From sequence record PZ452594.1: 64,000 bases of DNA. One strand, written 5' to 3'. How positions within the stretch are numbered: position 1 is the first letter of the stretch; each line of letters begins with the position of its first letter. The DNA is from a phage. Both the position numbers and the translations under genes were made by a program. The notes beneath the pieces are model-generated. The model was not told the origin of the DNA, searched no databases, and was given only the letters and a program-made list of their open reading frames with translations. Positions 15,566 through 38,202 of the stretch are shown here, one piece after another.

Positions 15566-16570
15566 CTAGTTTAGTGCATTTAGTGCGTTGTTCAATTTAG
15601 AACGTTGCTTCGTGAGATTTTTTACTTTTTCTTGGGCTTTTTCTAGCATCTTTTCAGCTTCTAACACTTCATTAGTTGCTTTAACGAGTTCATCATCTAC
15701 TGCCTTGATAGACTTCTCAATCGCATCCGCGTGCCATTTTTCAACAGGTTTAAGACTCGGATTTTCAACAGGAAGAAAATTCACTTTATTGAATTTCCAT
15801 GCATCATTATTACCTGAACTATACATCCAAAATTTAGGATCGTTTGATGAGTAATTAGTTTGGGGTTCAGGTTTTTTCTCTTGTGTAACTTCGTCCTTTC
15901 TCAAAAAATCATATTTAAATGAAACGATCATATCAAGTTCATATGTTGTCGTATCTAATTTAAATCGTTCGAAATGCTGCGAAATCTTAGATTGAACAGC
16001 AGCAACAACATCCATATACTTAAATGCTTCTGTCAGCTGTGATTTAAGACATTCACAAATTGAAAGAGAATTTTTTGTATTAGGTTTAAAGCTAATTCGT
16101 GCAGTTCTATTATTTTCTTTAGATGGTCTTACTTCCATCTGAAGAGTATAACCATCAAATTTCAGATTCTTTAAGTTAATATCAGAACCTTTTAATCGAC
16201 TAGCCGTCGACAAAATTTGCTTTAATTGTTTACGGAATAGAGCAATAAATCTCCATTCAATACGATAATGATTTGGATTGAAAAATCCAGATGATAAATC
16301 GACCTTACTCTGACCAACACCTTGAACAAATAGAGGATTTTTATAATCAATAGTTTTACAGAAATCGGTGAGCTGCTCACGAGCAGTCATTTGTGTAATA
16401 TACCCCGCTTTACTAAAATGACGTAACCATTCACTGCTATTCATATATTTAAAGTGAATATCACGATTAACTTTATCAGGGTCTAAATTATTTTGGCACA
16501 AAAATGTCATAACATCGCGAGTATAGCTGGCATTACGAACCATATCTTCAATTTGAGAACGAGTTTTCAT
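15566..16570 (-). CDS. Hypothetical protein (334 aa) with C-terminal coiled coil
   Basis: ORF. Confidence 0.55.
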   Translation of the reverse strand: MKTRSQIEDMVRNASYTRDVMTFLCQNNLDPDKVNRDIHFKYMNSSEWLRHFSKAGYITQMTAREQLTDFCKTIDYKNPLFVQGVGQSKVDLSSGFFNPNHYRIEWRFIALFRKQLKQILSTASRLKGSDINLKNLKFDGYTLQMEVRPSKENNRTARISFKPNTKNSLSICECLKSQLTEAFKYMDVVAAVQSKISQHFERFKLDTTTYELDMIVSFKYDFLRKDEVTQEKKPEPQTNYSSNDPKFWMYSSGNNDAWKFNKVNFLPVENPSLKPVEKWHADAIEKSIKAVDDELVKATNEVLEAEKMLEKAQEKVKNLTKQRSKLNNALNALN

Positions 16571-36439: not shown

Positions 36440-36740
36440 GCAACCTTGTCGGGGTTCCACCTGCTAAGGCAAGTGTTTGTACGAAACGCCGGGATTCGAA
36501 CCCGGTTATTAAGCAGTTGACGCTACTCAATATTTTTAAAAGGCCATATCTCGACCATATCCGAACGTTCCGTCAAAAACGCTACTCGGCTTACGGCAAA
36601 GATATTTCCTCGAATCGATAATTCGGTGCGCCGTTTCTGCTGTGATATAAGAGGGCATTAACAAAACATAAAGATTTATTAATGCCAGTCCTTAAACAGG
36701 GAACATCAGTCCGACGACTTACCGGTAGCGACCCGGTTTC
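36440..36740 (-). ncRNA. Probable small stable RNAs (T4 RNA C / RNA D-like); boundaries approximate
   Basis: Non-coding 300 nt between tRNA-Arg and terminator; contains tRNA-like T-arm GGGTTCGAATCCCGG. Confidence 0.35.
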
Positions 36741-36745
36741 TTGTT

Positions 36746-36820
36746 TGGTATCCCGCCCTGGGATCGAACCAGGACCGCAAACTTAGAAGGATCGTATGCT
36801 ATCCATTACACCAGCGGGAC
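36746..36820 (-). tRNA. tRNA-Arg (anticodon UCU)
   Basis: Cloverleaf read by eye; acceptor GTCCCGC/GCGGGAT, loop CUUCUAA, encoded CCA. Confidence 0.85.
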
Positions 36821-36825
36821 ATAAT

Positions 36826-37491
36826 TTAAAATTTCATTTTTCGACCTTTAAACCATCCTTCTGGAATTGGGTCAGTTTTCTTAATACGTTTAGAAACTTT
36901 TTCATCTAATGAATGAATCCACATCATACCAAATTGGGAATTCTTTTCACCTTTCTGGTGATTATTTTTAGCGTGAATTTCTTTCATTTTATTAATAGTT
37001 TCAAGAGTATGATGCTTATTTAAAAATCTGCTATTATTTAAAAATTTTTCCTTGTATTCAGGAGTTGACCATAAACGTTTAAATACATTTGAACCATTTT
37101 GACGATATTTTTCTTGAAGTAAAATATCATTTTTAAAACGTGACTTAAACGATTTAGCTCCTTTTAAACTAGCGTCTTTCTTCTGATTTAGCATCTCAGG
37201 AATATTTATATGATCCCATCCGCCTTCACCGCCAAGTTTTAAATTATACACATCTGGTCTATTTAAAAACTCTTCTGTGACAATATTTTTCTCGGCTTCA
37301 AGCATAGATTCTTTATCATCAAAATATTCTAATATTTCTTTAGAAAAATTTTCTATACCATACCTGTCTTGGGCTCTTTTTAATAATTTACCAGAACCCA
37401 TATATCCATCATCTAAATTTTCGGTAGAATGCACACCAATATAAATTTTATTATTAATTTTATTTGTTATTTTATAAAGATAAAAATGCAT
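36826..37491 (-). CDS. segB: GIY-YIG homing endonuclease (SegB-like) within tRNA cluster
   Basis: 221 aa from MHFYLYKITN; GIY-YIG motif YLYKITN...IYIGV...YMGSG; ORF-track N-extension overlaps a tRNA. Confidence 0.8.
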   Translation of the reverse strand: MHFYLYKITNKINNKIYIGVHSTENLDDGYMGSGKLLKRAQDRYGIENFSKEILEYFDDKESMLEAEKNIVTEEFLNRPDVYNLKLGGEGGWDHINIPEMLNQKKDASLKGAKSFKSRFKNDILLQEKYRQNGSNVFKRLWSTPEYKEKFLNNSRFLNKHHTLETINKMKEIHAKNNHQKGEKNSQFGMMWIHSLDEKVSKRIKKTDPIPEGWFKGRKMKF

Positions 37492-37537
37492 ATCAGTCCT
37501 TAATAAAGAACTGAGCGTCTCACGACGAGTCATAAAT

Positions 37538-37624
37538 TGGTGGGGAGTGATGGAGTCGAACCACCCGAGTCGCAATGACAATGAATTTACAGTCCACACC
37601 GCTACCTCTACGGGATAACTCCCC
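37538..37624 (-). tRNA. tRNA-Tyr-like (anticodon GUA), type II, additional to the T4 set
   Basis: Perfect 7-bp acceptor GGGGAGT/ACTCCCC, T-arm GGTGG-TTCGACT-CCATC, loop CUGUAAA, variable hairpin, encoded CCA; D-arm non-canonical. Confidence 0.55.
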
Positions 37625-37633
37625 TAATTAATT

Positions 37634-37710
37634 TGGTGACCCAGACCAGATTTGAACTGGTAACCTTTCCCTTATGAGGGGACTGCTGCTAACCATTGAG
37701 CTACAGGGCC
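37634..37710 (-). tRNA. tRNA-Ile (anticodon CAU; could read as Met)
   Basis: Anticodon loop CUCAUAA, T-arm ACCAG-TTCAAAT-CTGGT, CCA encoded; D-stem irregular (TTAGCAGCAG). Confidence 0.65.
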
Positions 37711-37711
37711 T

Positions 37712-37787
37712 TGGTGCTGATTGACGGAATCGAACCGCCGACCTTCTCATTACAAGTGAGTTGCTCTACCTACTGAGCTAAATCAGC
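37712..37787 (-). tRNA. tRNA-Thr (anticodon UGU)
   Basis: Acceptor GCTGATT/AATCAGC, loop CUUGUAA, CCA encoded. Confidence 0.85.
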
Positions 37788-37789
37788 AA

Positions 37790-37876
37790 CGGAGGCGATA
37801 GGATTCGAACCTATGAATCGCCGGAGCGACTGCCGGTTTTCAAGACCGGTGCATTAAACCACTCTGCCACGCCTCC
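37790..37876 (-). tRNA. tRNA-Ser (anticodon UGA), type II
   Basis: Acceptor GGAGGCG/CGCCTCC, loop CUUGAAA, long variable arm; CCA not encoded. Confidence 0.85.
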
Positions 37877-37878
37877 AG

Positions 37879-37952
37879 TCTCCATACAAGGATTTGAACC
37901 TTGGACCTCCTGATCCCAAATCAGGCGCTCTACCAAACTGAGCTACACGGAG
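37879..37952 (-). tRNA. tRNA-Pro (anticodon UGG)
   Basis: Anticodon stem-loop CCTGA-TTTGGGA-TCAGG; abuts tRNA-Ser (dimeric precursor). Confidence 0.85.
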
Positions 37953-37962
37953 TAAATTAAAT

Positions 37963-38036
<74 letters not shown>

Positions 38037-38041
38037 AAATT

Positions 38042-38128
38042 TGGTGCGAGAAGTGGGACTCGAACCCACAAGGAAATCATTCCGCAGCATTTTAAGTGCT
38101 GTGCCTTTACCAATTTGACCATTCTCGC
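38042..38128 (-). tRNA. tRNA-Leu (anticodon UAA), type II
   Basis: GCGAGAATGGTCAAATTGGTAAAGGCACAGCACTTAAAATGCTG...; CCA encoded. Confidence 0.9.
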
Positions 38129-38129
38129 G

Positions 38130-38202
38130 CTGGGAATAAAGGACTCGAACCTTTGCATCCTGGAATCAAAATCCAGTGCCTTACCAACTTGGCTAATTCC
38201 CA
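38130..38202 (-). tRNA. tRNA-Gln (anticodon UUG)
   Basis: Anticodon stem-loop CTGGA-TTTTGAT-TCCAG; abuts tRNA-Leu. Confidence 0.85.

Follow-up and report, generated by a model that had tools for sequence, protein, structure and literature searches.

A tRNA-Tyr(GUA) gene of the T2/T6/RB3 type beside segB in a phage tRNA cluster

Does the tRNA cluster of this phage hold a working tyrosine tRNA gene that T4 does not have and, if so, what might the phage gain from it? The question goes back to an initial annotation of the window, by which we mean the whole 64-kb stretch of DNA that was analyzed. That annotation placed an 87-nt tRNA-Tyr-like element at 37538–37624, between tRNA-Ile and segB, as an addition to the tRNA set of T4. 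ARAGORN returns identical coordinates, with a tRNA-Tyr(GUA) at exactly 37538–37624 on the minus strand, and the T4 record (AF158101) is without this gene, so the extra tRNA holds up on both counts. The strand is an addition of the present analysis, as none had been given before. Nine tRNAs were called by ARAGORN in the 64 kb, all of them minus-strand genes lying within 36746–38202: Gln(UUG), Leu(UAA), Gly(UCC), Pro(UGG), Ser(UGA), Thr(UGU), Met/Ile(CAU), Tyr(GUA), and Arg(UCU). The same program found no further tRNAs in the window. Apart from Tyr(GUA), these are the eight T4-type tRNAs in T4 order with segB between Ile(CAU) and Arg, just as the initial annotation had recognized them. In RNA sense, the tRNA-Tyr 87-mer reads GGGGAGUUAUCCCGUAGAGGUAGCGGUGUGGACUGUAAAUUCAUUGUCAUUGCGACUCGGGUGGUUCGACUCCAUCACUCCCCACCA. 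Its assignment as a class II tRNA-Tyr(GUA) gene with a long variable arm and an encoded CCA draws on the ARAGORN call, on identity to the copies in T2, T6, and RB3, and on covariation among homologs.

Every structural feature that the initial annotation had listed for this element (acceptor stem, T arm, CCA, CUGUAAA loop, two G-U pairs, variable hairpin, and irregular D arm) can be found in the sequence. The acceptor stem GGGGAGU/ACUCCCC pairs perfectly at 7 of 7 bp and is followed by the discriminator A (A73) and the encoded CCA. A GUGGA/UUCAU stem with two G-U pairs closes the anticodon loop CUGUAAA, in which both ARAGORN and the homolog alignment set the anticodon GUA at RNA positions 35–37 (37588–37590, minus strand), flanked by U on its 5′ side and A on its 3′ side. 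The variable arm forms the hairpin GUC-AUUGC-GAC (RNA 46–56; 37569–37579, minus strand), which has the same sequence in T6 and whose pairs covary among homologs (GC/AU, UA/CG, CG/UG). The T arm GGUGG-UUCGACU-CCAUC is standard. Bacterial tyrosyl-tRNA synthetases use A73, G1-C72, the GUA anticodon, and the long variable arm as identity elements, and all of these are found here. Compared with what is expected of a class II tyrosine tRNA, the element has the 7-bp acceptor stem with A73 and CCA, a 5-bp anticodon stem with a 7-nt loop, U33 and a purine at 37, the T arm, and the variable hairpin. It departs from that expectation in lacking a canonical D arm and in falling short of the gathering score of the Rfam tRNA model RF00005. 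Both departures speak for a pseudo-tRNA, an alternative also raised in the initial annotation, or for a decaying relic that persists solely through linkage or because SegB targets it.

Irregularity of the D arm shows in the ARAGORN drawing, where a CxC mismatch interrupts the UCCC/GCGG stem. This standard register consists of U-G, C-G, CxC, and C-G and leaves G at position 14, which would suit a pseudo-tRNA. A shifted register produces a 3-bp CCG/CGG stem (RNA 12–14 / 24–26; 37599–37613, minus strand) around the loop UAGAGGUAG, with a connector of 4 nt (UAUC) between the acceptor and D stems in place of the usual 2 nt. Over the 13 homologs that were aligned, D-stem pairing reaches 97% in the shifted register and 65% in the standard one, and the standard register was dropped in favor of the shifted CCG/CGG stem. 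The cloverleaf is also 4.4 kcal/mol more stable with the shifted register than with the standard one, and the shifted loop provides equivalents of A14, G18-G19, and A21. The CCG/CGG stem is invariant in all 12 of the phage and plasmid sequences. Because this stem never varies, covariation is unable to prove the register, which homolog pairing and folding energy point to instead.

For the remaining helices, covariation is far more telling. The alignment comprised the window, T6, RB3, rV5-like FV3, an E. coli plasmid, Moonvirus CF1, Schickermooser, Jiaodavirus Mineola, FelixO1-like wV8, T5-like BB1, Acinetobacter phage ABPH49, Enterococcus phage EF1TV, and E. coli tyrU. The last of these was taken by coordinates; a similarity search had given no chromosomal match. 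Standard pairs occupy 99.7% of the cloverleaf cells (13 homologs, 23 pairs). The sole unpaired cell of the 299 belongs to the D stem in the host tyrU row, and the phage homologs pair at 23 of 23 positions. Acceptor, anticodon, variable, and T helices are each 100% paired among the 13 homologs. Compensatory changes on both sides occur in 13 of the 23 pairs (36 cells), namely in 6 of 7 pairs of the acceptor, 2 of the anticodon stem, 3 of the T stem, and 2 of the variable arm. Shuffled alignments reached the observed covariation in 0 of 500 trials on four of five measures and in 2 of 500 on the fifth, and controls with slid partners gave 42–59% pairing. Outside the helices, the anticodon GUA and the four bases after it are invariant (13 of 13), the two bases that precede the anticodon in the loop are kept in at least 12 of 13, and the T-loop core and the G and A residues of the D loop are invariant or nearly so from phages of Enterobacteria to those of Enterococcus. 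That pairing in all four variable helices has survived 36 double changes, and that the anticodon, T-loop core, and D-loop G/A residues barely change across such distant phages, both argue against a decaying relic.

Prediction programs divide over the element. The initial annotation had proposed such predictors as its check, and the result is mixed: ARAGORN calls a tRNA-Tyr(gta) of 87 bases, whereas RF00005, with a gathering score of 29 bits, leaves the tRNA-Tyr at 37538–37624 below threshold and gives the adjoining tRNA-Ile 53.9 bits. Host tyrU scores 53.4 bits with this model, the E. coli plasmid copy 41.6, Schickermooser 39.0, Mineola 33.6, and FV3 29.9, and T6, T5-like BB1, wV8, ABPH49, CF1, and EF1TV each fall below 29 bits. 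Because T6, T5-like BB1, and wV8 fall below as well, the sub-threshold score is a trait of the lineage. The tRNA-Tyr genes of T6 and T5 have been validated experimentally, and the score is therefore no sign of a pseudogene. Two further observations lean toward a pseudo-tRNA: the record of wV8 flags its homolog as pseudo (‘tRNA-OTHER’), and the homologs of CF1, Schickermooser, and EF1TV are missed by ARAGORN at default settings. The best Rfam match in E-value mode was tRNA-Sec (RF01852), which was rejected at 29.9 bits against a cutoff of 47, with an anticodon of GUA rather than UCA and an acceptor of 7 rather than 8 bp. The match arises from the long variable arm and from additional bases in the D region. 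Weak sX4, Plastid-ycf2, and YrlA matches over the neighboring tRNAs were set aside as tRNA look-alikes.

The MFE structure of the single sequence is no cloverleaf. Its acceptor and T arms are kept, its middle is mispaired (z = −0.65), and it is more stable than the cloverleaf by 5 kcal/mol. Taken with the weak anticodon stem, this result could be held in favor of a pseudo-tRNA; uninformative single-sequence folding is common for tRNAs. The authors of the T6 study also remark that the phage tRNA-Tyr looks less stable than that of the host (PMC13096335). In the same study, the T6 copy, which differs from the one described here by 1 nt, was seen to be expressed by northern blot and rescued infection (PMC13096335), and the rescue afforded by a T5-type homolog needs its anticodon (PMC11555353). 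Both results count against a relic. The comparative evidence is what decides, and on that evidence we judge the tRNA-Tyr at 37538–37624 to be a genuine tRNA gene and no pseudogene. A caution for annotation follows for the phage tRNA-Tyr lineage as a whole, which sits at or below the Rfam tRNA threshold, has members that ARAGORN misses, and goes without annotation in many phage records.

A ninth tRNA might suggest novelty, as the initial annotation implied, and here it was mistaken. The gene is 87/87 identical to the copy in phage T2 and in two other Tequatrovirus records and differs by 1 nt from the copies in T6 and RB3 (86/87, 98.9%). It matches 1336 phage records, the majority of them annotated as tRNA-Tyr. 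Annotated copies include those of T2, T6, RB3 (AJ884578, ‘tRNA-Tyr (GUA)’), and PST, alongside hundreds of other records, as well as the T6 RefSeq entry NC_054907. PGAP-annotated RefSeq records of E. coli plasmids also label their homologs tRNA-Tyr. Such homologs are carried by 273 E. coli plasmids, and a blastn search of 5426 E. coli genomes gave matches to plasmids only and none to a chromosome. The lineage that shares the D region extends over Straboviridae, Vequintavirinae, Ounavirinae, Demerecviridae, Stephanstirmvirinae, Enterococcus Herelleviridae, and phage-plasmid-like E. coli plasmids, and the gene is 95% identical between Tequatrovirus and Vequintavirus. Brok-Volchanskaya et al. named tRNA-Tyr and tRNA-Asn among the T2L genes absent from T4 in 2008 (PMC2330249). 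The gene is thus already known as the T2/T6/RB3 ortholog and its annotation goes back at least to the RB3 and T2L sequences in that SegB study. Functional characterization of the T6 ortholog followed in 2026 with the work of Chihara et al. (PMC13096335).

The neighbors of the gene, all on the minus strand, are equally familiar. Upstream lies the T4-type tRNA-Ile (CAU; labeled Met by ARAGORN) at 37634–37710, and downstream, beyond segB, lies the T4-type tRNA-Arg(UCU) at 36746–36820, both placed by ARAGORN and by alignment of the interval. These are followed, as downstream of the cluster in T4, by rnaD (36625–36741) and rnaC (36480–36618). Between tRNA-Tyr and segB is a 46-nt spacer (37492–37537) that T6 has in identical form and that T4, T2, and RB3 lack. 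It contains a 9-bp hairpin (37493–37514) that covers AAGGA, the Shine-Dalgarno sequence of segB. The segB gene itself (36826–37491) encodes a GIY-YIG homing endonuclease of 221 aa that is recognized from its translation and by Pfam GIY-YIG (26.1 bits against a cutoff of 22.6). The protein retains the catalytic residues Y17/G19 and is identical to T6 SegB at 221 of 221 positions and to T4 SegB at 95%. No remnant of tRNA-Tyr was found in T4 and none of tRNA-Asn in the window, where the sole tRNA-Asn similarity is a T-arm match to tRNA-Ser. A promoter scan of the tRNA cluster gave matches no more numerous than in shuffled sequence. The tRNA region is reported to be non-essential in T4 and T2 (PMC2330249).

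The arrangement of tRNA-Tyr and segB matters on account of what has been observed in T6. Chihara et al. found that T6 mutants that escape the Septu defense system carry tandem repeats of a 718-bp unit made up of tRNA-Tyr and a SegB shortened by 28 aa. Formation of these repeats needs SegB catalysis and involves a microhomology that tRNA-Tyr, at its 5′ end, shares with the 3′ part of segB (PMC13096335). In the window, the pentanucleotide ATTAG occurs at the 5′ edge of tRNA-Tyr (37624–37628, minus strand) and again inside segB, about 28 codons before the stop (36906–36910, minus strand), at a spacing of 718 bp. This 5-nt match is the only identity of at least 4 nt at exactly that spacing, in the window and in T6 alike. 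From the spacing and the 28-aa truncation, we infer that ATTAG is the microhomology published for T6. The T arm supplies a further element in the DNA motif GGTTCGACTCC (37552–37562, minus strand; repeat family D2), which matches the GGTTCRANTCC core of SegB sites. That core is the recognition consensus of SegB, for which nine sites were located at the 3′ ends of tRNAs in T2L (PMC2330249). As far as sequence can tell, every component of the T6 tRNA-Tyr/segB module is contained in the window. The intact, adjacent SegB would be expected to make breaks at the 3′ ends of tRNA genes, and recombination between the two ATTAG copies over 718 bp could then yield tandem tRNA-Tyr/segB′ repeats and a higher dose of tRNA-Tyr. 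The window itself shows the identity of the gene, the conservation of its structure, synteny, an intact SegB, and the microhomology.

What a higher dose would accomplish is suggested by recent studies of two defense systems. The PtuAB nuclease of Septu EcB88 is activated by infection and cuts the variable arm of E. coli tRNA-Tyr (C48/A49). Sequencing of tRNA fragments placed a cut at C48 of T6 tRNA-Tyr likewise, and host and phage tRNAs are degraded alike (PMC13096335). In the tRNA-Tyr described here, C48 corresponds to this reported T6 position and lies at 37577. Overexpression of tRNA-Tyr rescues T6, deletion of the tRNA-rich region sensitizes T6 to Septu, and T4, which has segB but is without tRNA-Tyr, is unable to escape (PMC13096335). 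Azam et al. showed in 2024 that tRNA-Tyr of T5 and of SP15 neutralizes retron-Eco7 in a manner that depends on promoter strength, and hence on dose, and on the anticodon. Rescue from retron-Eco7 was likewise obtained with E. coli tRNA-Tyr under a phage promoter (PMC11555353). T2 is fully resistant to Septu and T6 only intermediate (PMC13096335). With its identical tRNA-Tyr and without segB, T2 indicates that the tRNA alone does not set the phenotype.

The papers on T6, T5, and SP15 are the source for expression, cleavage, rescue, and amplification, and we infer that the present phage would behave in the same way. By analogy with T4 and T6, tRNA-Tyr would be transcribed within the tRNA cluster, trimmed to an RNA of about 85–87 nt with its CCA already encoded, aminoacylated by the tyrosyl-tRNA synthetase of the host, and used for translation. 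It would add to the cellular pool of tRNA-Tyr, which should be in high demand because 4.6% of the codons in the window are Tyr. The extra supply would become critical when HNH nucleases of the PtuAB type (Septu, retron-Eco7) cut the variable arm of tRNA-Tyr during infection. Septu cuts T6 tRNA-Tyr, whose variable arm has the same sequence as the one here, and protection is therefore predicted to come from dose rather than from a tRNA that resists cleavage. The gene is thus very probably a functional tRNA-Tyr(GUA), orthologous to those of T2, T6, and RB3, that adds to the Tyr pool against PtuAB cleavage and whose dose can be raised by way of segB.

Of the other explanations, codon supply fares best. 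The initial annotation had suggested that the tRNA could adjust the decoding of UAU/UAC. Tyr makes up 4.6% of codons in the 62 long ORFs of the window (UAU 36.1 and UAC 9.9 per 1000, or 79% UAU), with similar figures on the early and late strands, and such frequent Tyr codons make a supply role possible. In E. coli, about 2.8% of codons are Tyr and about 57% of these are UAU. The main effect of tRNA-Tyr might then be to raise Tyr supply for a Tyr-rich, UAU-biased proteome, independently of defense. The neighboring tRNA-Asn(GUU), lost or gained among relatives, would fit, as it also reads very frequent codons (AAU, 47.9 per 1000 in the window ORFs), and codon compensation is listed as the prevailing view in the Discussion of PMC13096335. 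The anticodon GUA, however, is the same as that of the host, so the phage tRNA brings more quantity and no new decoding capacity. It serves no new codon, and the eight classic T4 tRNAs match host-rare codons instead. T4 shares this codon bias and does well in the absence of tRNA-Tyr, and where loss or gain of tRNA-Tyr has had a published phenotype, it was specifically under Septu (PMC13096335) or retron-Eco7 (PMC11555353). Of the decoding idea, the supply element is therefore plausible and the decoding element is not, and the role supported for T6 and T5-like phages is replacement of nuclease-destroyed tRNA-Tyr (PMC13096335, PMC11555353). Supply as the main function seems to us unlikely, if still worth considering; it is best seen as a secondary role that is compatible with counter-defense.

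A different departure from the dose-dependent reading would make tRNA-Tyr a decoy, with the atypical D arm and the 5-nt variable loop rendering it immune to the nuclease or an inhibitor of it. The variable loop does have 5 nt (AUUGC) where the aligned loop of host tyrU is 2 nt shorter (ACA), and the D region is unlike that of the host throughout the lineage. Earlier work cited in PMC13096335 holds that T5 tRNA-Tyr resists retron-Eco7 cleavage through its variable loop, and the paper also mentions a ‘decoy or supplement’. T2, with the identical tRNA-Tyr, is resistant to Septu (PMC13096335). These points lose much of their force against the cut that Septu EcB88 makes at C48 of T6 tRNA-Tyr, the variable arm of which is identical to the one here (PMC13096335). 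Rescue also tracked dose or promoter strength, and E. coli tRNA-Tyr on a phage promoter rescued too (PMC11555353). We consider a cleavage-resistant decoy improbable. The D region, atypical yet conserved throughout a phage lineage that has spread horizontally, might be an adaptation. No discussion of it was found in PMC2330249, PMC13096335, or PMC11555353. There is perhaps an outside chance that it was selected, for example for altered recognition by a host nuclease, modification enzyme, or processing enzyme, and that the lineage is a specialized counter-defense tRNA that spreads horizontally. If so, the phage tRNA-Tyr would be more than a diverged copy of the host tRNA. As for a pseudo-tRNA, its low RF00005 score, irregular D arm, weak anticodon stem, and missed or flagged homologs notwithstanding, the covariation described above largely rules it out, and we regard it as hardly credible.

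As a discovery the gene carries little weight, since the call is correct but ordinary and the gene is a known one of T-even phages. Compared with tRNA-Tyr of E. coli (tyrU, tyrT, tyrV), it shares the CUGUAAA loop, class II form, A73, G1-C72, and the GUC...GAC variable stem, yet the two are only 60% identical, and the host tRNA has a 2-nt connector and a CCC/GGG D stem. T5-like phages (T5, SP15) have a tRNA-Tyr of the same lineage, and the BB1 copy is 79.5% identical to that of the window, with the same atypical D region, GUCAUUGCGAC variable arm, and T arm. The proposed action, topping up a depleted tRNA-Tyr, is also the same. The differences are compensated changes in the acceptor and anticodon stems, another phage family and genomic context, and a setting without the segB amplification module. 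T4 (AF158101; eight tRNAs plus rnaC and rnaD) has the same eight tRNAs in the same order with segB between Ile and Arg, but there tRNA-Ile is followed directly by segB across an unrelated 41-nt junction, the first SegB codons differ, and tRNA-Tyr, tRNA-Asn, and the 46-nt spacer are all missing. In the T-even set of T2/T2L, RB1/RB3, and T6 (GenBank AJ884578, PV958097, AP018814; PMC2330249, PMC13096335), tRNA-Tyr lies 9 nt downstream of tRNA-Ile(CAU) as it does here, across the common spacer AAATTAATT(A), and the tRNA-Tyr gene itself is without any feature that distinguishes it from their copies. T2 and RB3 differ in what comes next, since they have tRNA-Asn after tRNA-Tyr and no segB, and their homology to the window stops 4 nt past the CCA, exactly at the start of their tRNA-Asn. 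With T6, the window is collinear through Ile, 9 nt, Tyr, the 46-nt spacer, segB, and Arg. The T6 record is without the tRNA-Pro and tRNA-Ser that the window keeps, so the window is not T6 itself. The value for annotation lies in assigning to this phage the T6-type tRNA-Tyr/segB module in place of the T4 arrangement. Such a module predicts partial, dose-dependent resistance to Septu and retron-Eco7 together with escape via 718-bp tandem amplification.

The tRNA-Tyr(GUA) gene at 37538-37624 (minus strand), situated between tRNA-Ile(CAU) and segB, has relatives in phages outside the T-even group. The tRNA-Tyr of the Vequintavirus FV3 is 95.4% identical to the window copy even though rV5-like phages are unrelated to T4-like phages, and the FelixO1-like and T5-like copies in the alignment retain 79-83% identity. 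These identities suggest that a single tRNA-Tyr lineage is moving horizontally between virulent enterobacterial phages. A coliphage-type tRNA-Tyr at 95.4% was also found in a record named 'Campylobacter phage A116', and the top match to the window's T-even region (99.0%) is a record titled 'Pseudomonas phage vB_PSGBLB0006'. The host labels of these two records are probably wrong or a sign of contamination.

The lineage also extends to plasmids. A blastn search of 5426 E. coli genomes returned the phage-type tRNA-Tyr in 273 plasmid records at 88-93% identity (for example, at 16133-16219 of NZ_CP024264.1) and on none of the chromosomes. Plasmid sizes span 72-121 kb for the 13 listed or examined among the 273. 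On one plasmid that was examined, the gene sits in an Asn-Tyr-Thr-Ser tRNA cluster with DNA ligase, integrase, and GrxA nearby, and looks to be on a phage-plasmid. Recognition of the lineage is itself uneven. With default settings, ARAGORN did not call the homologs of Moonvirus CF1, Schickermooser, and Enterococcus phage EF1TV, all of which have 5-nt connectors between the acceptor and D stems or diverged 3' ends. The gene is likewise unannotated in the CF1 and Schickermooser records and in several further phage records. Together, these omissions indicate that the phage-type tRNA-Tyr lineage is systematically under-called.

On the 3' side of tRNA-Tyr, a spacer that T4 lacks holds a 9-bp hairpin, UCAGUUCUU-UAUU-AAGGACUGA (37493-37514, minus strand), which ends 1 nt short of the segB AUG and sequesters the segB Shine-Dalgarno AAGGA. 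Judging from this arrangement, the hairpin may exert translational control over the SegB endonuclease. An alternative in-frame ATG at 37531-37533 (minus strand), 5 nt past the tRNA-Tyr CCA, would give a 235-aa SegB, 14 aa longer. This start is probably not used because it has no Shine-Dalgarno and the 221-aa form is the one annotated in T6.

Elsewhere in the cluster, homologs of rnaC (species 1; 36480-36618) and rnaD (species 2; 36625-36741) lie downstream of tRNA-Arg on the minus strand, with 98.6% and only 89% identity, respectively, to their T4 counterparts, which are stable RNAs of unknown function. The CAU-anticodon tRNA at 37634-37710 (minus strand), labeled Met by ARAGORN, shows no difference from the gene annotated as tRNA-Ile in T4, whereas the CAU tRNA occupying this position in T2 and RB3 is clearly distinct. 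Array make-up differs even among close relatives when T6 and T2 are compared with window 37712-37952: T6 lacks Pro and Ser, and T2 has a 133-aa ORF at the place expected for Thr. Asn is present in T2 and RB3, and T4 is without both Tyr and Asn. Of the arrays compared, that of the window has the fullest T4-type tRNA set, plus Tyr.
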